Source: an uncultured Alphaproteobacteria bacterium (GTDB taxonomy: Bacteria > Pseudomonadota > Alphaproteobacteria > Rs-D84 > CACZYB01). Taken from it: a DNA stretch of 32,000 nt. How positions within the stretch are numbered: the stretch's first letter is position 1; every line of letters starts with the position of its first letter. This document shows positions 1 through 29,490 of the stretch, piece by piece. Location of the stretch: contig CAKQHZ010000002.1 of NCBI GenBank assembly GCA_934246625.1, positions 1 through 32,000 of the forward strand, read 5' to 3'. The notes under the pieces are model-generated. The model saw only the letters and a program-made list of their open reading frames with translations, did not search any database and was not told where the DNA came from. A program made the position numbers and the translations under genes.

Positions 1-29
1 AGGAAGAAACACCCTCGAAGGAGAAAAAA

Positions 30-779
30 ATGAAAACCATGAAGAAAAAGAAATTAGCGGTGATAGGGATAGCGGGAGTAGCGGGAATGCTTTACTCTGC
101 AACACCAGCCTCCGCTCAAACATTTTATCAATGTATGCCGATAACTTGCCCAGCAGGAAGTTATCTTTTAAATGGAAAATGTGAAATTTGCCCAAGAGAT
201 TCTTATTGCGTAAATTCACAAAAGACAGCTTGCCCAACTGGAACCTATTCACATTTTGGTGCAAGAAGTTTCAACGATTGTGCAAATAATTCGGTATCTT
301 GGAGCTTTAATTATGTATATCAAGGAGAAAATTGCACTAAACAATCTAGTGCTGGTGGATGTTGTTTCTCAAATGTATTGTTTGATAGAAATGAAATAAC
401 AACCAATGCAACTCGAGGATATTTCTGTCAAACTTATGGAAAAAACGGCAACAACAGTGCAACAGATTGTGTTTCTAAAGTAGAAGGTTCTGATACATTA
501 ACATACGATAGAAATACAAAATATCTTGTATCAATCTCAGGGCAAACAGATATTTCAAACCTTCCAATATCTGAAAAACTTGCAATAATACAAAATTGTG
601 AAAATAATCCAAAAACTTGTGCTCTCATTATTGGTTATGACACATTCTGCAAACCAGGTTGCGGTAACGAATACAAATATATATCTTCATCATGCAATGG
701 CGGTGGTTCAACTTGTAAAAGAGAAAATGGAAAACTATATATCTATAATGCAAGTGTTCACGCTCAAAAAAGTCTATAA
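30..779 (+). CDS. secreted cysteine-rich protein with CxxCPxG[ST]Y repeats (ephrin-receptor-like / GCC2_GCC3 / furin-like type), paralog 1
   Basis: 249-aa ORF with a GGAG Shine-Dalgarno 7 nt before the ATG. Sec-type signal peptide MKTMKKKKLAVIGIAGVAGMLYSATPASA|Q. Motifs CPAGSY, CEICPRDSYC, CPTGTYS and AGGCC. 18 Cys in the mature part by my count. A hairpin terminator follows immediately. Confidence 0.8.
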   Translation: MKTMKKKKLAVIGIAGVAGMLYSATPASAQTFYQCMPITCPAGSYLLNGKCEICPRDSYCVNSQKTACPTGTYSHFGARSFNDCANNSVSWSFNYVYQGENCTKQSSAGGCCFSNVLFDRNEITTNATRGYFCQTYGKNGNNSATDCVSKVEGSDTLTYDRNTKYLVSISGQTDISNLPISEKLAIIQNCENNPKTCALIIGYDTFCKPGCGNEYKYISSSCNGGGSTCKRENGKLYIYNASVHAQKSL

Positions 780-785
780 AACAAT

Positions 786-809
786 CCCCTCCTTTGAGGG
801 GAATTTTTT
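786..809 (+). terminator. intrinsic terminator of the 30..779 gene (inside repeat copy 1)
   Basis: Stem CCCCTC (786-791) / GAGGGG (796-801), loop CTTT, then AA + T6 (804-809). Confidence 0.8.
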
Positions 810-813
810 ATAC

Positions 814-842
814 TTGCAAAAAGAAGCGAATCGTGATAATAT
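814..842 (+). promoter_or_regulatory. sigma70-like promoter inside repeat copy 1
   Basis: TTGCAA (814-819), 17-nt spacer, TAATAT (837-842). The same cTTGCAA -35 form recurs at other promoters in this window (6207, 24694). Confidence 0.6.
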
Positions 843-848
843 ATAAAA

Positions 849-919
849 CATAGACATAGAGAATAAGAAACAAACAACTCTTTGAAAGGCTGATTACCTT
901 TAAAGGGATTTTTTATTTT
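849..919 (+). ncRNA. candidate ~70-nt sRNA, copy 1
   Basis: Predicted TSS is about 7 nt after the -10 element. An A-rich, apparently unstructured 5' part (cauagacauagagaauaagaaacaaacaac) is followed by a hairpin of 879-889 with 897-907 (7-nt loop, one mismatch, two G-U pairs) and a U-rich tail. There is no ORF. The next gene has its own promoter. Confidence 0.5.
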
Positions 920-932
920 TATAAAATAATTG

Positions 933-958
933 TTGACAAATAAATAAATTGGTATAAT
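933..958 (+). promoter_or_regulatory. promoter of the 971..1252 ORF (extended -10)
   Basis: TTGACA (933-938) and TGgTATAAT (950-958). The spacer is only 14 nt, but an extended -10 TGn is present. The -10 ends 12 nt before the ATG and there is no Shine-Dalgarno, so the mRNA is nearly leaderless. Confidence 0.5.
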
Positions 959-970
959 AATACAATCATT

Positions 971-1252
971 ATGAATATAAAAAATGCAAATATAAAAGAT
1001 TTACTTGAATTAAAACGAGAACTTACCATAAACCTAAATATGGCACAGAATGAATGCAACCGCACAAAATGTCCAAAGTTAGCTAAAATTCAAAACTCAG
1101 ATAATAAACAAACATCAATTATCACAATGGCTGAACAATGTGCTGACATTTGTCCTAATAAATACGCAATGGAAAAACTTTTCCTTTTAAAACAAATAAA
1201 CGAACTTAACCATATAATTGATGATAAAATAAACGAATCTAAATCACGATAG
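971..1252 (+). CDS. hypothetical small protein (93 aa) with two Cys pairs
   Basis: ORF with ATG start and its own promoter. Cys pairs CNRTKC and CADIC lie between predicted helical/coiled segments. No family recognised. Confidence 0.45.
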   Translation: MNIKNANIKDLLELKRELTINLNMAQNECNRTKCPKLAKIQNSDNKQTSIITMAEQCADICPNKYAMEKLFLLKQINELNHIIDDKINESKSR

Positions 1253-1253
1253 T

Positions 1254-2129
1254 TTATTTTTCACACTCGCCACAATCAGAACAACCATTGCAACAAAGTC
1301 TAAGTCCACAAGTATCACAACGGCTTCTGAAATGTGGAACATATTCTTCTACATTTTCAAACAAAGATAGTTGAGGTTTAGTCAAATTAAATTTGAACTC
1401 CCTGCCCTTGAATTGAAGTCCAGATTTAAAAGCCATCTGACTTTGTAATTGTTTGCTTGGCATATTATAAAGTTTACCATCTTTAATAAAATTCGTGCCA
1501 GTTTCCATAAAACAAAATGTAGTATTTGCCTCTACACACTCGTCATACAAACTTTTAACCCAATCATAATTTAGTGGTCGTGAACCATCATAATTTTCAC
1601 CACAAGCAATAACTTGTTCTATAACACCCTTTGACAGATATTGTTTTATTGACATAGGCCCAATAAACGGAGCAACCATAATTCCCTTATGTTTAAATGG
1701 CAAATCAAATAATATTGGAATTCGCTCATCTGCCCTTTTTTGATTTTCACATGTTGTATTAAAGAAAATATTTTCCCAACCATCACCCCAATCCTTTGGA
1801 AGATGATTCGCAACACGTTCAGGTCGTTTTGTAAGCAAAAAGAATATAACATCTGGGCGTTGTTTCATAATGGACCAAGCCTCATCTCGCCAAACATCAG
1901 CTTCCTCAAGAAAAAAATCAGATGTCATACAAACACGAAGTTGTTCGCCACTTTTTATTTTAAAATTACCATTTTTATCTTTTGAAAGCGGATAATAAAA
2001 GTTGTTTTTCACCTTAAATATTCTGGAACCATCTTGATTGCGTTGTTTATCTAAAAAATACATATAGCAATTCGCACAACCTTCACTTTTCTTTAAACAA
2101 CCATGCCAAGGATTCCAAATATCGTGCAT
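1254..2129 (-). CDS. DUF5131 / phage Gp37-Gp68 family protein with a Cys-rich C-terminal tail
   Basis: N-terminal WNPWHGCLKKSEGCANCY matches the family signature WNPxxGCxxxSxGCxNCY. LLTKRPERV and the CGENYDGSRP..DWV blocks are also present. The extra tail CDTCGLRLCCNGCSDCGECEK is unusual. GAGG Shine-Dalgarno upstream. Confidence 0.8.
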   Translation of the reverse strand: MHDIWNPWHGCLKKSEGCANCYMYFLDKQRNQDGSRIFKVKNNFYYPLSKDKNGNFKIKSGEQLRVCMTSDFFLEEADVWRDEAWSIMKQRPDVIFFLLTKRPERVANHLPKDWGDGWENIFFNTTCENQKRADERIPILFDLPFKHKGIMVAPFIGPMSIKQYLSKGVIEQVIACGENYDGSRPLNYDWVKSLYDECVEANTTFCFMETGTNFIKDGKLYNMPSKQLQSQMAFKSGLQFKGREFKFNLTKPQLSLFENVEEYVPHFRSRCDTCGLRLCCNGCSDCGECEK

Positions 2130-5117: not shown

Positions 5118-6194
5118 ATGAAATGGGTAAAACAACAACAAAACGCAATTACATCAATCGAAACTTTATCAAAAAAATTTCCGAAATATAATATTGCGAA
5201 ACAAACAAACTTTAATTTAAAAATCACCCCTTACTATCTTTCATTGATTGATAAGGATAATCCAAACGACAAACTTGCAAAAATAGTTATTCCCTCATCA
5301 AAGGAATTAAATATAAAACCCGAAGAACTTGACGACCCAATCGGAGATAAAACAAAAAACGAAGATTTAGATAATTCTCCTGTAAAGGGACTTGTTCACC
5401 GCTATGACGACCGTGTATTGATATATATGGGAAATGTTTGCAGTTCATATTGTCGTTATTGTTTAAGAAAAAATATAATCAAAAATACACCAATAACAAA
5501 AAAGGATATTGAAACAGCAATAAATTACATAAAAAAAACAAATGTAATAAAAGAGGTAATTTTAAGTGGTGGCGACCCACTTATGAATTCTGACGAATTT
5601 TTGTTTGATACAATAAGGAAAATTGAAGCAATTCCGCATATCAAAGCAATTCGAATTCATACAAAAATGCCAATTTACAATCCATTCAGGATTACAAATG
5701 ATTTCATAAAACAAATCAAAACTATAAAAAAGCCACTTATAATAATAATTCACGCATCACACGAACGCGAACTTACAGATATAGTCAAAACAAAACTTAA
5801 AAAACTTCAAAAATGCGGTGTAATACTTTTAAATCAATGTCCATTACTAAAGGGAATAAACGACACCATCGAAGAACAAACAAAACTTGGCTACAGACTT
5901 CAAGAATGTGGAGTTTTGCCACATTATCTACACTATATTGATTTGGCAAAGGGCACATCACATTTTCGTGTTCCATTAAAGGACGCAAGAAAACTTATGA
6001 AAGATTTACGTGGACACATAAGCGGACAACTTATACCAAAACTTATACTTGATATACCAAGTGGATACGGGAAAATCCAACTTGAAGATACATTTATAAA
6101 GGAAATATATAACGACGGGAAAAATACCTTTATCAAAATTCAAAGTCCAAATATCAAGAATAAAATCCTAACATACAAGGAAGTTTTGGAATAA
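5118..6194 (+). CDS. KamA-family radical SAM protein (lysine 2,3-aminomutase / EpmB-like)
   Basis: 358 aa. Radical SAM cluster motif CSSYCRYCLRK, SGGDPL, and N-terminal ITPYYLSLID typical of the KamA family. AAGGAG Shine-Dalgarno upstream. Confidence 0.88.
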   Translation: MKWVKQQQNAITSIETLSKKFPKYNIAKQTNFNLKITPYYLSLIDKDNPNDKLAKIVIPSSKELNIKPEELDDPIGDKTKNEDLDNSPVKGLVHRYDDRVLIYMGNVCSSYCRYCLRKNIIKNTPITKKDIETAINYIKKTNVIKEVILSGGDPLMNSDEFLFDTIRKIEAIPHIKAIRIHTKMPIYNPFRITNDFIKQIKTIKKPLIIIIHASHERELTDIVKTKLKKLQKCGVILLNQCPLLKGINDTIEEQTKLGYRLQECGVLPHYLHYIDLAKGTSHFRVPLKDARKLMKDLRGHISGQLIPKLILDIPSGYGKIQLEDTFIKEIYNDGKNTFIKIQSPNIKNKILTYKEVLE

Positions 6195-6206
6195 TAAAAT
6201 TCCTTC

Positions 6207-6235
6207 TTGCAAAAATCAATTTAAAAATATATAAT
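6207..6235 (+). promoter_or_regulatory. sigma70-like promoter upstream of the structured region
   Basis: TTGCAA (6207-6212), 17-nt spacer, TATAAT (6230-6235). Confidence 0.65.
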
Positions 6236-6241
6236 AAACCT

Positions 6242-6448
6242 CGGATAAGGCAAAATCCTTATCTGGGGTCGTAGAAAGCCTCTAGTAGATTGCTTGTAGT
6301 CATATCAAAATGCTACATTCTAAAACTCAGTCTGGGATTCAACCTTTGGGTTGGATATCGGCTGAATAAGGTATTGGCTGAATAAGCCGAGCCATAAATC
6401 TACATGGTTTTCTAATATCCACCCCTTACAAAAGCTAAGGCTTTTTTT
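6242..6448 (+). ncRNA. candidate structured RNA (riboswitch-like 5' leader or independent ~205-nt ncRNA), class not recognised
   Basis: Visibly GC-enriched relative to its flanks. 5' hairpin 6243-6250/6257-6264. A three-segment long-range helix (6265-6269/6421-6425, 6273-6280/6406-6413, 6285-6290/6398-6403) encloses hairpins 6295-6300/6312-6317, 6337-6344/6349-6356 and 6358-6363/6385-6390. A weak hairpin 6424-6428/6436-6440 plus T7 follows. The only ORF here is an implausible antisense one. Confidence 0.5.
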
Positions 6449-6470
6449 ATAACTAAAGGGAGGAAAAACC

Positions 6471-6908
6471 ATGAACAAATCTTTTATCTTTAGTTGTTTA
6501 TTTTGTGCAACTATACCTTTCAACACCTCGTCCTTTGCAAACGAAGGATATGGAGCTTACCCTGGAGGAGGCACAAGTTATACAACTTTTCCAACCAACA
6601 CAATATCCGAACTTACAAAAGTTTTACAAAAATATTGTGTTCCAGATAATGCCTCAGTTTGTAATTCCAAATATCAGGCAACTTTTAATGAAAGTTTCAA
6701 CACGTGTGAATGCAAAAGCTGTGGACTTTTTTATAACAAAAAAACACGTCTATGTGAACAATGTCCAAAGGGAACATACACAACCGACCGACACTCTTCT
6801 GAATGTTTAAAAATTGATTGCGGTGGCGGTTATCGTGTTGTTTTAATGGAAGACACAGAAACTTGTCCAAAAGGTTATAAAAAAATCAAAGTATCAATAT
6901 GTAATTAA
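6471..6908 (+). CDS. secreted cysteine-rich protein, paralog 2
   Basis: 145 aa. GGGAGG Shine-Dalgarno upstream. Signal peptide ending in SSFA|NE. Contains CEQCPKGTYTT and ETCPKGY. 11 Cys after the signal peptide by my count. Confidence 0.75.
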   Translation: MNKSFIFSCLFCATIPFNTSSFANEGYGAYPGGGTSYTTFPTNTISELTKVLQKYCVPDNASVCNSKYQATFNESFNTCECKSCGLFYNKKTRLCEQCPKGTYTTDRHSSECLKIDCGGGYRVVLMEDTETCPKGYKKIKVSICN

Positions 6909-6913
6909 AATAT

Positions 6914-6982
6914 GGGTGGAAGTTTTTTTATCATAGTCTTTGCTTCCACCCTCCCAAAAGCACTTATTGGGGAAAGTGCTTT
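6914..6982 (+). other. two perfect 9-bp stem-loops in the paralog 2 - paralog 3 spacer
   Basis: GGGTGGAAG (6914-6922) pairs with CTTCCACCC (6943-6951) around a 20-nt U-rich loop. AAAGCACTT (6957-6965) pairs with AAGTGCTTT (6974-6982). Confidence 0.6.
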
Positions 6983-7013
6983 GATAAATTATTCACCCCA
7001 AAAGGAGACCATT

Positions 7014-7466
7014 ATGAAAATAAATACTATACTTGCAATCGGAACATTACTTTATCCACAAATTGCAAAAGCAGACTTATATAAATGTGAACTTTGCCCT
7101 GCTGGAACCTACAGCGATGGTAAAAGTCTTGAATGTTCAAAATGTCCAGTTGGAACCTATTCAAACAAAAGTGGTGTATCATCTTGCACCCCTTGCACAA
7201 ACTTTCGTCCTGGTTTTTCTCACTATACAACAAGTGGTGGCACAAAAAATGAATGTGCTTGGAGTTGTAATGCTGGCCTTATTTACACATCTAGCAATGC
7301 TGGGGGTTGTTGCCATGAACCTGCTACCCCAAACCATAACTCCTCATCACCAAAAACATGTAAAAGAGAAGCCATTTGCAGAAGTTATTCTGGAACATTT
7401 TTATGGTCAATTGGAGGCGGTGCCTGCACTCCTCTTGGTTCAAAAAAATGTATTGAATACAACTAA
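7014..7466 (+). CDS. secreted cysteine-rich protein with CxxCPxGTYS repeats, paralog 3
   Basis: I chose the start at ATG 7014 (AAGGAGA Shine-Dalgarno 6 nt upstream), not 6912. Signal peptide MKINTILAIGTLLYPQIAKA|D. Contains CELCPAGTYS, CSKCPVGTYS and AGGCC (shared with paralog 1). 14 Cys by my count. Confidence 0.8.
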   Translation: MKINTILAIGTLLYPQIAKADLYKCELCPAGTYSDGKSLECSKCPVGTYSNKSGVSSCTPCTNFRPGFSHYTTSGGTKNECAWSCNAGLIYTSSNAGGCCHEPATPNHNSSSPKTCKREAICRSYSGTFLWSIGGGACTPLGSKKCIEYN

Positions 7467-7499
7467 ATACTCCCCTCCTTTGAGGGGAATTTTTTATAC

Positions 7500-7528
7500 T
7501 TGCAAAAAGAAGCGAATCGTGATAATAT
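7500..7528 (+). promoter_or_regulatory. sigma70-like promoter inside repeat copy 2
   Basis: TTGCAA (7500-7505), 17-nt spacer, TAATAT (7523-7528), identical to copy 1. Confidence 0.6.
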
Positions 7529-7534
7529 ATAAAA

Positions 7535-7605
7535 CATAGACATTGAGAATAAGAAACAAACAACTCTTTGAAAGGCTGATTACCTTTAAAGGGATTTTTT
7601 ATTTT
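7535..7605 (+). ncRNA. candidate ~70-nt sRNA, copy 2
   Basis: Same promoter, A-rich body and terminator hairpin as copy 1. The next gene downstream is convergent, so this promoter has no mRNA to drive. The one a/t difference (7544) lies in the single-stranded part. Confidence 0.5.
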
Positions 7606-7649
7606 CAATCCTTACAAATTAAAAAACTCCCCATAAAGAGGAGTTTATT

Positions 7650-8195
7650 TTACTTTTTCAATTTAATATATGGTCCAACAGTAAAAATCTTATTTGGGTC
7701 ATCAAATTTTAATTCCACAAAGTATTTTTTTGTATCAATATCCTTTCCAACAAAAAATTCAACTTCAGGAAGCTCTTTTACCCCCTCACCTTCCTTTACA
7801 TTAAATGAAAGAAGATAAGGCATATTTTTTTCACTATCCCAACCATCAACGAACCAAATTAGTTTATTTGCATTTCTATTTATAACATATCCACCATTGC
7901 TAAACACTTCATACTTTACCATATAATAAGTTCCAGCATCTAACTTTTTAACATCTGGTCTGAATTTTGAAGGAGGCATATTAAATATAGCTTTAAAAGT
8001 TCCCATTCCAGCATGAAAGATAGAAGAATCATCTTCACTAAAACCTTTTTTTCTCCAATATGTTTTTACATTATATCCATTTTCATCTTTAAATCTAAAG
8101 GCAACCTCTGTTGGATTAGATGATTTTAATTTTGGTTGACTTAACGCACACGCAGTCAAAAATACAAAAACAAATAATGTTAAAATTTTTTTCAT
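7650..8195 (-). CDS. hypothetical lipoprotein
   Basis: I chose the start at the MKKILTLFVFVFLTAC lipobox methionine (AAGGA Shine-Dalgarno upstream), not the ORF-track start at 8237. 181 aa. No family recognised. Confidence 0.6.
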   Translation of the reverse strand: MKKILTLFVFVFLTACALSQPKLKSSNPTEVAFRFKDENGYNVKTYWRKKGFSEDDSSIFHAGMGTFKAIFNMPPSKFRPDVKKLDAGTYYMVKYEVFSNGGYVINRNANKLIWFVDGWDSEKNMPYLLSFNVKEGEGVKELPEVEFFVGKDIDTKKYFVELKFDDPNKIFTVGPYIKLKK

Positions 8196-8276: not shown

Positions 8277-9566
8277 TTAAGAATTTTTCTTTCGTCTTAG
8301 GTTTTCCCAATAATCAAGACGCTTTTTAATTTCACGTTCAAACCCACGTTCCACAGGTGTATAAAACTTTTGTCGTTTCATACTTTCTGGGAAATAATTT
8401 TGCCCTGAAAATCCCTCTTTTGTATCTGGGTCATAAATATATCCCTTTCCAAAACCTTGCTTTTCCATCAATTTTGTTGGTGCATTGATTATATGCATAG
8501 GAGGATTAAGGGAACCCGTAGATTTTGCCACCGCAACCGCATTATTCCAAGCAACTTCACTTGCATTTGATTTTGGTGCAGTCGCAAGATATATAACCAA
8601 AGACGCAACCGCCAAATCACCCTCAGGAGAACCCAATCTTTCGTATGCTTGCCAAGCATTTATTGCATAAGGCAAAGCGTGAGGGTCCGCAATTCCAACA
8701 TCTTCCACCGCAAAACGAGTAAGTCTTCGCAAAATATACTTCACATCTTCACCACCTGTAATCATTCTTGCAAGCCAATAAAGCCCCGCATCAACATCAC
8801 TACCACGAAGTGATTTATGAAGTGCGGAAATAAGTGAATAGTGTGCATCTCCCATTTTATCATAATTAGGAAGTCGTGTTTGAATAACCTTTGGCAAAGT
8901 CGCCTCATCAATAATTTTACCATTTGCAAAATCATAAATCATTTCAATCATATTAAGCAAATAGCGACCATCACCATCAGAAATTGCCACCAAATTTTTT
9001 CTTGCTTGCTCGGTCAAGGGAAGAGCCTGCTCCATCTCGGACTCTGCACGGGAAATAAGTTTTTCCAATGCTTCCTCATTAAGGCGTTTTAAAATAATCA
9101 CCTGACATCGTGAAATCAAAGCAGAATTAAGCTCAAACGATGGATTTTCTGTTGTCGCACCAATAAGTGTAATTGTCCCATCTTCCACATAAGGAAGGAA
9201 ACTATCTTGTTGAGCCTTATTAAAACGATGAATTTCATCAACAAAAAGTATAGTTCTTTTACCAACATTACGCAAACTTACCGCATCGGCAAAAACTTTT
9301 TTCAAATCGGCAACCCCAGAAAAAACCGCAGACAACATAACAAACTCTGCATCAGCATACTTTGCAACCAATTTTGCAATAGTTGTTTTACCACAACCAG
9401 GAGGTCCCCATAAAATCATAGACTTTATATTACCACTTTTAAGCTGATTAGTAATAATTCCATCATCACCCAAAATATGTTCCTGACCAACGACATCAGC
9501 AAGACTATCAGCACGAAGTCGTTCAGCAAGCGGAGTCCCAATTTTTGTTTCAAAAAGTTCGTTCAT
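8277..9566 (-). CDS. rarA: replication-associated recombination protein A (AAA+ ATPase, MgsA/RarA)
   Basis: 429 aa. Walker A GPPGCGKTT, Walker B FVDEIHRFNK, and C-terminal MgsA blocks (HYSLISALHKSLRGSD, YLARM). Confidence 0.92.
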   Translation of the reverse strand: MNELFETKIGTPLAERLRADSLADVVGQEHILGDDGIITNQLKSGNIKSMILWGPPGCGKTTIAKLVAKYADAEFVMLSAVFSGVADLKKVFADAVSLRNVGKRTILFVDEIHRFNKAQQDSFLPYVEDGTITLIGATTENPSFELNSALISRCQVIILKRLNEEALEKLISRAESEMEQALPLTEQARKNLVAISDGDGRYLLNMIEMIYDFANGKIIDEATLPKVIQTRLPNYDKMGDAHYSLISALHKSLRGSDVDAGLYWLARMITGGEDVKYILRRLTRFAVEDVGIADPHALPYAINAWQAYERLGSPEGDLAVASLVIYLATAPKSNASEVAWNNAVAVAKSTGSLNPPMHIINAPTKLMEKQGFGKGYIYDPDTKEGFSGQNYFPESMKRQKFYTPVERGFEREIKKRLDYWENLRRKKNS

Positions 9567-24976: not shown

Positions 24977-25768
24977 CTATTTAATATTTCCCATAACTTC
25001 TTTTAACTTAGAAATATTTAACTTTCTTGCCTTTCTATCAGCATCAATTTTATTTAAAATTTCATTATATAAATCTTCGTCTGAAAAAACTGTTTTTGCT
25101 TTTTTTTCATTCATCAAAGAAAGTTTTGCCATAGTATCAACTGATAAAATTTCACCCTTTGTAAGCTCAGTATGATAAAAAGTTTTATGAAGTTCTTTCA
25201 AAAATCCACTATACATATTTTCTGGGAAAAATGATTTATCTGCAATTTCCTTTGCAAAACTTAAACATTCGCTTGTTGAAAGATTATATCTTTCCTTAAT
25301 AACATATTTGTGAGCAATTCTTAAATAACTTTCAACAGATTCTTTTTTTGTTTTACTTCCCAAATATCCAAGGATTAAACGAATTTTCAAAACATTGATA
25401 AGTTCAGAATAAAAATCACGTCTTGCAACACTTTTTACATCATATTCTTCACCAAAAGCATCAATAAGACTGCCTTTTCTATCAAAAAATCCATTTTCTT
25501 TGTTATAAAGGAAATAATAATCCAAACCACTTGTCAAAGAAATCTTTTTTGCTAACTTATGGCCTATTTTTTTATAAGACAAACTTGCAACTTCAGAATG
25601 GTTTTCGACATTAAGGAAAGCCTTTTTTGGAAATGACAAGGATAATTCACCTTGTTTATTTCGTGAACCATCAGCGTGAAGTTCTATTTCACCAACACCA
25701 TCATCAGAAACACAAAGAATGTTTTGTTCAGATATTTTAATTTTTGGAAAATCAAATTTATAAATCAT
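24977..25768 (-). CDS. hypothetical protein (263 aa), second gene of the orphan operon
   Basis: ATG lies 9 nt after the upstream stop. Its GAGGTG Shine-Dalgarno overlaps that TGA stop codon. No recognisable domain, signal peptide or TM helix. Confidence 0.6.
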   Translation of the reverse strand: MIYKFDFPKIKISEQNILCVSDDGVGEIELHADGSRNKQGELSLSFPKKAFLNVENHSEVASLSYKKIGHKLAKKISLTSGLDYYFLYNKENGFFDRKGSLIDAFGEEYDVKSVARRDFYSELINVLKIRLILGYLGSKTKKESVESYLRIAHKYVIKERYNLSTSECLSFAKEIADKSFFPENMYSGFLKELHKTFYHTELTKGEILSVDTMAKLSLMNEKKAKTVFSDEDLYNEILNKIDADRKARKLNISKLKEVMGNIK

Positions 25769-25777
25769 AATAGCACC

Positions 25778-26803
25778 TCATAAATCTCTACAACCACAAA
25801 GTAGTTTAGTAAATGTAAAAGAAGACCCAACATTATTCAAAATATCTTCTCTTAGTTTTTTATTATCCTTATAAGGAAGAATTTTTATAGAATCCTTATG
25901 TTCTTCATTATATTTTGTAATAACATCATCAACGTGAATACCACGAAGCAAAGCATTCAAAGCAAGTATCAAAGTATCTGGTTCTATATCATCTTCTTTG
26001 AAATGTTGAAAAGTTCTTAATGCTTCAAATATGACATGAGTTTTTGCCCCAACATGATAAAAACAATCCAATGTTGCAATAACTTCACAAATCATATAAT
26101 CATTAACACTTTTATCTTCCAAAGAAGGAATAGGAATATAAATATAGAATTTAAAATCCATATAATTACTATCCTTTACACTAAACTTTGATAAAAATTT
26201 ATATTTTTCAATCAATTCAGGTGTTGTATCCAAATGAAAAGCATTTTTAATATGCACATTTGTTTCAGGAAGTTTAGTTATCAACCCTTTTTGCTTAATA
26301 TTATTAAACTTTTTAACAATTAAATCGGTTTGATGAGTTTCTTCCAAAACCAACTTACCATCTGCATTTGTAATTGGTTGATCATTTTCATCTTTTTTTT
26401 CATAATTATAAGAAATAGTTTTATCATTAAAAGAAGGCTTAGTAAAATCATATTCTTCCTCAAAACTATTTCTATCAATCGGATTAGTAGAAATAAATTG
26501 CAAAAATTCCAATAATTCTTCTACTGTTTTCAATGAAACAGTTGCTCTTACAATATCAAGAATATCAGAAGCATTTTCAATATCATCTTCTTTAAGTTTT
26601 TCCTTCACACGATTAGGAGTCTTTAATGGAACCATAGTTGTGTGCAACTTTGTATTATGAGTTTTTTCAAACTTTTCCTTTAAAATAAGCAATACATAAT
26701 CAAAAATAACCTTAGAATAAACACCATTTTCGAATAAATCTTCGACACTGATATTCTCAGGTTGTATTGGTTTTCCACGTTTTCCAAATTTTATATTTGC
26801 CAT
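25778..26803 (-). CDS. hypothetical protein (341 aa), possibly a RelA/SpoT-like nucleotidyltransferase fold with a large insertion
   Basis: GAGGGTG Shine-Dalgarno upstream. By-eye motif order: LKTPNRVKEKLK, DILDIVRATV, (about 110-aa insertion), YMDFKFYIY, ICEVIATLD...THVIFEALR. Ends in CGCRDL. The fold assignment is weak. Confidence 0.6.
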   Translation of the reverse strand: MANIKFGKRGKPIQPENISVEDLFENGVYSKVIFDYVLLILKEKFEKTHNTKLHTTMVPLKTPNRVKEKLKEDDIENASDILDIVRATVSLKTVEELLEFLQFISTNPIDRNSFEEEYDFTKPSFNDKTISYNYEKKDENDQPITNADGKLVLEETHQTDLIVKKFNNIKQKGLITKLPETNVHIKNAFHLDTTPELIEKYKFLSKFSVKDSNYMDFKFYIYIPIPSLEDKSVNDYMICEVIATLDCFYHVGAKTHVIFEALRTFQHFKEDDIEPDTLILALNALLRGIHVDDVITKYNEEHKDSIKILPYKDNKKLREDILNNVGSSFTFTKLLCGCRDL

Positions 26804-29025: not shown

Positions 29026-29086
29026 CAAAACCACTAGCATAAAAATTTTTATTTTACTTTTAAAGAATCTATGTTATATTGAATAT

Positions 29087-29202
29087 CAGATATAGCACAT
29101 AGCTATGTTTAGTATCAGTGTATAGCGATACGGAGCTGTCAGAAGCTTTAATTAGACAGGGTATGAAATAACCATCAGATACTCTTGCAGTATCTTTTTT
29201 TT
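29087..29202 (+). ncRNA. candidate ~115-nt sRNA in the merR-recG spacer
   Basis: Extended -10 TGtTATATT at 29072-29080. Intrinsic terminator AGATACT (29177-29183) / AGTATCT (29189-29195) followed by a T-run through 29202 (the stem's last t plus 7 more gives T8). Internal hairpins such as CTGTC/GACAG at 29136-29140/29155-29159. No ORF longer than 10 codons. Confidence 0.4.
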
Positions 29203-29463
29203 ATACCCAAAGCCCCAGCCTTTGTTGGTTGGGGAGCTGTAGTCATACAACAGGAATATTGTCCCTATATAATATTCTAAAAGCTACAAAGTCATTGTCT
29301 AATATGATTTCTGAACTGCCCGACCACTATCTTTGATACGTGGAATTATTTTTATAAAGGGGGTAGTAAAAAATGTAATGTCTGTGGAATAATAAACTTA
29401 TTACAAAAATGAAAGTATAGACACTATGATAGATAGAAAAATAAATAAACAAACTAACAAAAC

Positions 29464-29490
29464 TCCCCAGTAAAAAGCTGGGGATTTTTT
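29464..29490. terminator. bidirectional terminator at the 3' end of merR
   Basis: Stem TCCCCAG / CTGGGGA (29464-29470 with 29478-29484) and a 7-nt loop. T6 follows on the plus strand and AGTTTTGTT follows on the minus strand. Confidence 0.7.

Follow-up and report, generated by a model that had tools for sequence, protein, structure and literature searches.

Three cysteine-rich genes, P1, P2 and P3, are found in the stretch of DNA analyzed here, 32,000 nucleotides of contig CAKQHZ010000002.1 from an uncultured alphaproteobacterium (below, the window). They are parts of a two-gene module, in which an RNA leader is followed by a conserved P2-like gene and by a variable gene of the family that includes P1 and P3. 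On balance we favor the joint reading that these are multicopy modules of exported disulfide-rich proteins, in which the variable protein is under diversifying selection and the constant head of the module serves as a recombination tract. Of the modules in the window, two are intact (the first being truncated by the window start) and one is decayed. An earlier interpretation based on the letters of this DNA (the sequence-only reading) regarded the three genes as paralogues. This has to be abandoned, since P2 belongs to a different, conserved family and the unit is the two-gene module with its RNA leader. The three genes are located as follows:

30–779, plus strand: P1, variable family gene of module 1 (249 amino acids, 18 Cys)
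6471–6908, plus strand: P2, conserved partner gene of module 2 (145 amino acids, 13 Cys, 11 of them after the signal peptide)
7014–7466, plus strand: P3, variable family gene of module 2 (150 amino acids, 14 Cys)

The two-gene module and its cysteine-rich proteins

Wherever the sequence before a family gene could be obtained, a P2-like gene immediately precedes that gene. In addition to the P2-P3 pair of the window, such pairs are seen in L091, L087, L088, L090, L093, L085 and L096 (the latter two are more distant members of the lineage), and they come from at least two genera. The module is built of a promoter, a structured leader RNA of ~190 nt, the P2-like gene (product of 130–210 amino acids), a covarying hairpin with a short untranslated region (UTR) and the variable gene (product of 150–250 amino acids). 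In L091, a 172-kb contig syntenic with the window, a P2-like gene of 138 amino acids precedes the P1 orthologue. The window starts 29 nt before P1, so module 1 is cut by its edge, and the leader RNA and the P2-like gene lie outside. The following part of the upstream region is retained:

1–29, plus strand: conserved 5' UTR end of module 1 with the Shine-Dalgarno sequence GAAGGAGA, identical upstream of paralogues in L001, L087, L088 and L089

Contigs that start 25–150 nt upstream of family genes begin in the conserved spacer or in the final codons of the P2-like gene, which indicates that the repeat breaks the assemblies.

P1, P2 and P3 are the three most Cys-dense open frames of the window. 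P1 contains the motifs CEICPRDSYC, CPAGSY and CPTGTYS, P3 contains CELCPAGTYS and CSKCPVGTYS, and P2 contains CEQCPKGTYT, with one Ephrin-like repeat and CPxGY motifs. All six occurrences of CPx[GDS][STA][YFW] found by a six-frame scan of the 32 kb fall inside these genes. The pentapeptide AGGCC is common to P1 and P3. The open reading frames (ORFs), the Cys counts (the 11 Cys given for P2 being those after the signal peptide), the CxxCPxG[ST]Y motifs and the sharing of AGGCC, all of which the sequence-only reading had listed, were verified. The Sec signal peptides that it proposed are supported as well: direct reading and hydropathy suggest a basic n-region, a hydrophobic core and a small-x-small cleavage site in each protein, with cleavage predicted (vertical bar) at ASA|QTFYQCMP in P1, SFA|N in P2 and AKA|DLYKCELCP in P3. 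Neither a lipobox nor a hydrophobic segment after the signal peptide was found in P1, P2 or P3 (highest 19-residue Kyte-Doolittle mean ≤0.67). The three proteins are most probably Sec-exported, soluble and free of a membrane anchor.

In P1 the signal peptide is followed by an N-terminal region of Ephrin/TNFR-like Cys repeats. P3 has two repeats of the Ephrin_rec_like/TNFR-like kind after its signal peptide, then a linker rich in Pro and Ser and, at the C-terminus, a Cys module that is replaceable. The ribosome-binding site of P3 is AAGGAG at ~7002; the in-frame ATG upstream, at 6912, is probably not the start codon, because it has no Shine-Dalgarno sequence and lies inside a hairpin.

P1 and P3 can be aligned by BLASTP over ~100 amino acids including AGGCC (E 9e-6), with an overall amino-acid identity of 29%, and P2 shares only a single repeat with either of them. 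By sequence comparison, P1 and P3 make up one variable family and P2 is a member of a separate conserved partner family. There are 51 clusters related to P1 (175–250 amino acids), almost all of them from ENA metagenome assemblies. Their N-terminus is nearly invariant (MKTMKKKKLAVIGIAG(VAG)MLYSATPASA|QTFYQCMP) and is followed by one to four Cys repeats. Past these the C-termini, all rich in Cys, fall into five or more types without relation to each other, one type including a Gly_rich_2 domain. The N-terminus of P3 is a diverged form of the same ASA|QTFYQCMP start. For P3, a word-indexed search of 5.8 billion proteins returned close orthologues only (88% and 78% identity), and so did the one for P2 (97% identity); a scan of JGI metagenomes with the family alignment returned a single locus. 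The claim that the family is restricted to a lineage agrees with these results, as its relatives are nearly all in metagenomes and few of them were found for P2 and P3 by the word-indexed searches.

The family profile was also searched against 1.84 billion protein representatives (E ≤ 1e-3). The 2101 matches are mostly proteins of 1000–8000 amino acids with up to 41 matched repeats and E values down to 1e-77; about 20 matches are short family members from related lineages, which have other leaders and the same AQ(T/K/N)FYQC(M/L)P start. Among 20 matches that were looked up, all four proteins with a named organism are eukaryotic (Naegleria gruberi, Barthelona, Carpediemonas membranifera and an oyster), in line with the earlier statement that such repeats occur mostly in eukaryotes. 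The family is not described in the literature found on Ephrin_rec_like/GCC2_GCC3 in bacteria or symbionts and on eukaryotic-like Cys-rich secreted proteins. Pfam, NCBIfam, PHROG and Rfam have no model, and the literature searched has no paper, for either the P1-type or the P2-type family, for the module or for the leader RNA.

P3 matches Ephrin_rec_like (PF07699) in two stretches with 32.4 bits (gathering cut-off 23.1) and TNFR_ELAPOR1_6th (PF23091) with 34.9 bits, which narrowly exceeds the cut-off of 33.2. Among PDB sequences it best matches Mst1, a mastigoneme protein of Chlamydomonas, over the Ephrin_rec_like repeats of that protein (4e-13), and death receptor 6 (6.7e-5); thyroglobulin and ELAPOR1 are further matches. 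Ephrin_rec_like is matched by 22 of the 52 aligned members of the P1 family and TNFR_ELAPOR1_6th by 15 of them (E ≤ 0.01). The score of P2 against Ephrin_rec_like, 20.7 bits, is slightly under the cut-off, and that of P3 against TNFR_c6 (PF00020), 16.6 bits with E 0.011, is below the cut-off of 29.4. The searches in NCBIfam and PHROGs gave no match, and no toxin or defense domain was found in Pfam, NCBIfam or PHROGs. At the domain level P3 is a member, and P1 and P2 are relatives, of the Ephrin_rec_like/TNFR-like Cys-rich domains. The assignment of all three proteins to this repeat class in the sequence-only reading can be kept for P3, by two Pfam thresholds, and for 22 of the 52 P1 relatives; P1 itself has no match, P2 remains below the threshold, and the TNFR_c6 part of the claim falls away.

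Variation between strains and mosaic structure of the copies

P1 and P3 change much faster than the genes around them. Between the window and L001 the neighboring genes have 97–100% protein identity, with a nonsynonymous divergence (dN) of 0.001–0.024 (median ~0.009) and a synonymous divergence (dS) of ~0.1. The corresponding values are 80%, 0.134 and 0.30 for P1, and protein identity of 89% with dN 0.067 for P3; the rate of amino-acid change in P1 and P3 is 10–60 times that of the neighbors. P2 retains 96–97% amino-acid identity between strains (96% with L001), and the downstream neighbors, orf93 and a gene of 181 amino acids, are 98–99% conserved while P1 and P3 vary.

The changes in P1 are concentrated between the Cys residues, and all 18 Cys are kept in all seven orthologue clusters, except for two that fall within a deletion in P0008. 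In comparison with the closest strain, L091, residues 85–150 of P1 have 20 nonsynonymous and 3 synonymous differences (omega ~1.7) and the rest of the mature protein has 10 and 0. These small counts point to positive selection on P1. In P3 the signal peptide and the repeats are nearly invariant, and the last 48 codons, past the Pro/Ser-rich linker, are replaced in L003. Both dN and dS are saturated in this part, a pattern that points to segment exchange and not to point mutation.

The constant part of the module is most evident from the comparison of the RNase E-side locus (L091) with the fabZ-side locus (L087). These share a block of ~650 nt with 96–100% identity, which starts ~20 nt before the start codon of the P2-like gene and continues through the hairpin and the UTR into the first 37–58 codons of the family gene. 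Past the block, inside the variable gene, the identity drops to 30–50%. For the module loci in general, the identity of the 5' block is 97–100%. Aligned with P1 of the window, P0015 stays similar up to about nucleotide 130 and P0029 up to about nucleotide 175. The breakpoints thus differ between paralogues, which points to recombination as the origin of a mosaic. In L087, L088 and L090 the P2-like genes, too, are composed of shared segments in mosaic fashion, and P2-like sequence is ~98% identical upstream of unrelated variable genes. L087 and L088 have, at ~9.3–10.0 kb, the same variable gene and downstream region in two upstream contexts, fabZ or a glycosyltransferase gene; the switch point lies within the P2-like gene, of which there are two forms with different N-termini. 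Either the region was truly duplicated or translocated, or the assembly has been joined across the repeat.

Modules can be held by six or more sites of the chromosome. The site after fabZ is occupied by P0015, P0050 or P0054 and the site before rpsD by P0029 or P0052, depending on the strain or species. In the window, the spacer between recG and merR (29.0–29.5 kb) carries the decayed third module:

29040–29371, plus strand: orphan leader of the third module, 99% identical to the leader in L101, followed by a ribosome-binding site and ATG-TAA
29368–29516, plus strand: degenerate 3' remnant of a deleted family gene, with a terminator at ~29463–29490

The remnant has 80% identity to the last ~135 nt of the module in L101. 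At the same recG-merR site L101 has an intact pair, a P2-like gene of 138 amino acids and a P3-like gene of 209 amino acids (AQNFYQCTPCPAGTY...), between flanks that are 99.3% identical to those of the window; ~1.1 kb present in L101 is deleted in the window.

Several genes next to modules of other contigs deserve mention. A DsbA/thioredoxin-like gene (L096, 2019–2861) stands directly upstream of the leader and the P2-like gene of the rpsD-side module, which is consistent with a need for periplasmic disulfide formation. In L090 a tail-fiber-like gene with the Mtd_N (major tropism determinant) domain (136–1266, minus strand) adjoins the module. A diversity-generating retroelement, considered because of this gene, was set aside, as the window contains neither a reverse transcriptase nor a template repeat. 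Phage capsid and scaffold genes are found in L087 and L088 at 16.5–20.7 kb, 6–9 kb from the module; there are no phage genes near the modules of the window itself.

The leader RNA and other structured elements

The sequence-only reading had mentioned unusual RNA elements flanking these genes, and this is borne out: a leader, an intercistronic hairpin and a 3' element are supported by sequence comparison and folding. Their positions in the window are:

6207–6235, plus strand: promoter-like TTGCAA-17-TATAAT of module 2 (10 of 12 matches), start of the invariant intergenic block
6236–6462, plus strand: structured leader RNA of module 2, core motif 6255–6430
6914–6951, plus strand: intercistronic hairpin directly after the P2 stop codon; G+C-rich stem of 9–10 bp, loop of ~18 nt, no U-run
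6957–6982, plus strand: another short hairpin, between the intercistronic one and the ribosome-binding site of P3
779–919, plus strand: 3' element, copy A; terminator 785–802, promoter-like TTGCAA-17-TAATAT and ~75 nt to a second terminator-like hairpin
7465–7605, plus strand: 3' element, copy B; terminator 7471–7488, fold z = -3.8

The 277-nt spacer upstream of P2 is invariant from position 17 on in four strains that otherwise differ by 1.5–3.4%. The leader in it folds with a minimum free energy of -79.5 kcal/mol (z = -6.3 relative to shuffled controls), and a weak hairpin with a U-run at ~6429–6450 immediately precedes the ribosome-binding site of P2. The leaders of P2 and of four other P2-like genes have in common four helices with 30 pairs, in which 87% of the cells are paired. 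Twelve pairs are changed on both sides; none of 500 shuffles was as good, and slid controls gave 42–45% pairing. A covariance model built on this structure scores 63 bits on the leader of module 2, which is however part of the seed alignment. Outside the seed it matches the window at 29211–29330 (44 bits, E 4e-10) and the regions upstream of P2-like genes in L096 and L101, with no other matches in ~250 kb. Rfam 15 contains no match at gathering scores, and for 6150–7700 only chance-level ones (E 0.13–0.44). By its conserved structure, its fixed position and its matches outside the seed the leader qualifies as a predicted cis-regulatory RNA of a generic kind. A terminator-like hairpin with a run of 8 U at 29177–29206, seen also in L091 at ~9225–9255, is located between the promoter-like region and the leader core, and is absent from the P2 leader at 6236–6462. 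It is possible that the leader is preceded by a separate short transcript or an extra control point.

The intercistronic hairpin is kept at every module with 100% of the cells paired, and three lineages have C-G, U-A or A-U as its pair 4. The conservation of this spacer was at first ascribed to a short peptide ORF (MGGSF...), which was then rejected: the frame is broken in L088, and compensatory changes preserve the stem.

The two copies of the 3' element (141 nt) are 98% identical despite the 29% amino-acid identity between P1 and P3. The element is present at both sites in L001 and L091 and does not occur after other family genes. It may encode a small RNA of ~75 nt, whose gene would then be duplicated. 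The few strain differences in the element cluster immediately past the putative transcription start.

Interpretation, genomic setting and known systems

In the reading favored here, the P2-like and the variable protein would cross the inner membrane by Sec and be oxidized in the periplasm, giving rigid disulfide scaffolds. The constant P2-like protein and the conserved N-terminal part of the variable protein would work together, for example as constant and variable subunits. The variable part would bind an external target, either a host molecule or a competitor or phage, and would be under diversifying selection. Recombination between paralogues would use the identical 5' block as its homology tract, and expression would be set in cis by the leader RNA in response to some signal.

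Several points weigh against this reading. P1 has no Pfam match of its own. The AlphaFold models made from the family alignments have a mean predicted local distance difference test (pLDDT) score of 45 for P3 and 44 for P1, reaching 70–80 in the repeat region only, and models this poor leave the fold and the disulfide map unconfirmed. With them Foldseek gives local matches of ~50–60 residues to the Cys-rich domains of EphA2 and EphA4, to thyroglobulin, ELAPOR1 and DcR3, the best of them with E 7.5e-3 and none with E ≤ 1e-3; the matches are weak because the predicted structures are of low confidence. The proposed interaction between the P2-like protein and its partner is inferred solely from gene order and co-conservation. 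The gene-wide dN/dS of 0.38–0.57 is below 1, and the omega above 1 is based on 23 substitutions. The leader structure was derived from the same alignment on which it was tested, with about six independent sequences. Finally, the identical 5' block could instead stem from selection on the function of the RNA or of the leader.

The modules might alternatively encode a secreted bacteriocin-like antibacterial, exported by the constant leader and killing gut competitors by its variable part, with the P2-like product as a helper or immunity protein. Polymorphic toxins and bacteriocins of gut bacteria show such a layout, and the constant N-terminus with a polymorphic C-terminus, the replacement of alleles at a fixed locus and the presence or absence of modules between strains all fit it. 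However, the domain libraries revealed no toxin, pore-forming or enzyme domain, no dedicated exporter is found near the modules, and no small gene varies together with the variable part: the P2-like protein is ~98% constant and the downstream neighbors are 98–99% conserved. P2 as a cognate immunity protein was rejected on the ground of this missing co-variation. With nothing co-varying and no toxin domain, we regard the antibacterial role as rather improbable.

A somewhat lower probability is given to the proposal that the proteins remain periplasmic and serve as inhibitors resistant to proteolysis, or as immunity proteins, against incoming lysozymes, proteases or effectors of competitors, diversifying as they track the attackers. 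They are small, disulfide-rich and polymorphic, they have a Sec signal only, with no outer-membrane secretion signal or anchor, and the envelope has two membranes. On the other hand, none of the known inhibitor or immunity families resembles them, repeats of this class otherwise belong to surface proteins and extracellular receptors, and a conserved pair of proteins with an RNA leader is atypical of immunity gene arrays.

An antigenically varying cell-surface coat, with one or few paralogues expressed at a time as in Giardia, is unlikely: the proteins have no membrane anchor, lipobox or C-terminal sorting signal. The many CxxC-rich paralogues, their shared 5' regions suited to gene conversion and the turnover between strains fit such a coat, but there is no silent cassette among the copies seen, all of which are complete genes equipped with a promoter region and a leader, and no invertible promoter or recombinase is linked to the copies.

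Equally doubtful is a more far-reaching joint proposal, in which the proteins are secreted mimics of TNFR/Eph receptors acting as decoys, diversified by recombination and assembled as heterodimers of a constant P2-like and a variable chain, the repeat having come from a eukaryote and the leader being a new class of riboswitch. Their ligands may then be host molecules (TNF-superfamily cytokines, ephrins or mucosal glycoproteins) or molecules on the surface of a protist host in the gut, and a gut metabolite may switch on the whole family.

Chance open frames or eukaryotic contamination of the metagenome assembly, for which nothing but the eukaryote-like repeat speaks, are refuted by the synteny of the orthologues, which lie among housekeeping genes of bacteria in contigs (up to 316 kb) of many different samples, by strong ribosome-binding sites and terminators, and by Cys residues conserved under substitution.

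The surroundings of the modules are those of an ordinary bacterial chromosome, with G+C of ~32% over the whole 32 kb. The genes present include galE, a uracil-DNA glycosylase gene, a KamA/EpmB-like radical-SAM enzyme gene, rarA, lpxA, lpxI and gmk, as well as an RND efflux system, scoAB, comEC, recG, fabH and plsX; a two-membrane envelope is indicated by lpxA, lpxI, bamA and the RND pump. GC skew is negative across the whole window (cumulative -6.6) and most genes are on the minus strand; P1, P2, P3 and the decayed copy are all on the plus strand, against the predominant orientation. The stretch of the lowest G+C (25–28%) contains two adjacent ORFs of 263 and 341 amino acids (24977–26803, minus strand), which have no Pfam match and are kept in other strains, where comEC or a cation-efflux gene lies beyond them. 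A DUF5131 (phage Gp37/Gp68-like) protein at 1254–2129 (minus strand) has a Cys-dense C-terminal tail, CDTCGLRLCCNGCSDCGECEK, that is conserved in L001. Scattered virB-type type IV secretion genes and a cluster resembling type IVb pilus/type II secretion genes are found at related loci.

The P3 alignment gave no match among GTDB species genomes. RarA has at most 61% identity to the GTDB matches listed, the best of which are uncultured alphaproteobacterial metagenome-assembled genomes; that scan relied on exact 8-mers, by which closer genomes are possibly missed. Contig L097 from a Hadza fecal metagenome is 99.6% identical to the window across 7.1 kb, and Hadza contigs also carry other members of the P1/P3 family (gut dataset in bioRxiv 10.1101/2022.03.30.486478). 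A human-gut habitat is compatible with interaction with the host or the community, and demonstrates neither.

Ephrin-receptor/TNFR-type Cys repeats are known almost entirely from eukaryotic surface biology. Here they occur in a multicopy, reshuffled and apparently RNA-regulated secreted family in a gut bacterium of a non-industrialized population, which is a concrete candidate for direct molecular contact of an uncultured commensal with its host or with co-resident eukaryotes. The modules also offer a compact case of bacteria holding the export-and-regulation "head" constant and swapping the functional "tail", and their structured RNA motif, which has a defined genetic context and no Rfam match, is a candidate new regulatory RNA.

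The same CxxCPxGxY repeat is found in the Ephrin_rec_like (PF07699, formerly GCC2_GCC3) and TNFR-like Cys-rich domains of the Eph receptor, ELAPOR1, DR6, Mst1 and giant protist proteins. Unlike these, the proteins described here are bacterial, have a mass of 15–25 kDa, and combine a Sec signal, one to four repeats and unrelated Cys-rich C-termini; the transmembrane and kinase parts of the eukaryotic receptors are absent. The poxvirus decoys CrmB to CrmE and the host protein DcR3 are likewise small secreted proteins made of TNFR-type Cys-rich domains, and DcR3, CD40 and CrmE appear among the weak fold matches, not significant with E of 0.25 or worse. The variant-specific surface proteins of Giardia, like other Cys-rich surface antigens of protists, form large, rapidly diversifying paralogous families with CxxC-rich repeats; the Giardia proteins have a C-terminal transmembrane anchor and a conserved tail. 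Their repeat class is related to the present one, but in our modules the conserved end is N-terminal and the anchor is absent, which sets the two families apart.

In the Erp/Mlp "upstream homology box" genes of Borrelia and in msp2/p44 of Anaplasma, the 5' ends are kept similar by recombination. The present modules resemble these families in the near-identical upstream region and leader, the differing mature parts and the mosaic breakpoints. The Borrelia and Anaplasma products are however lipoproteins and porin-like proteins, the Borrelia families have no sequence relation to the modules, and Anaplasma uses one expression site with pseudogene cassettes, whereas each copy here is complete.

The sequence-variable mosaic (SVM) effectors of phytoplasmas form a multicopy mosaic family, in which a conserved signal-peptide motif precedes otherwise unrelated secreted proteins (PMC8026896). 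The logic of a constant export leader and a variable mature part is the same in SVM proteins (PF12113; SAP11, SAP54) and in the modules, and the likeness is one of gene-family logic only; the Pfam scan gave no match to PF12113 at E up to 10. In contrast to the SVM genes, the modules belong to a two-membrane organism, encode Cys-rich proteins, comprise an RNA leader as well as the conserved gene of a partner, and lie outside potential mobile units.

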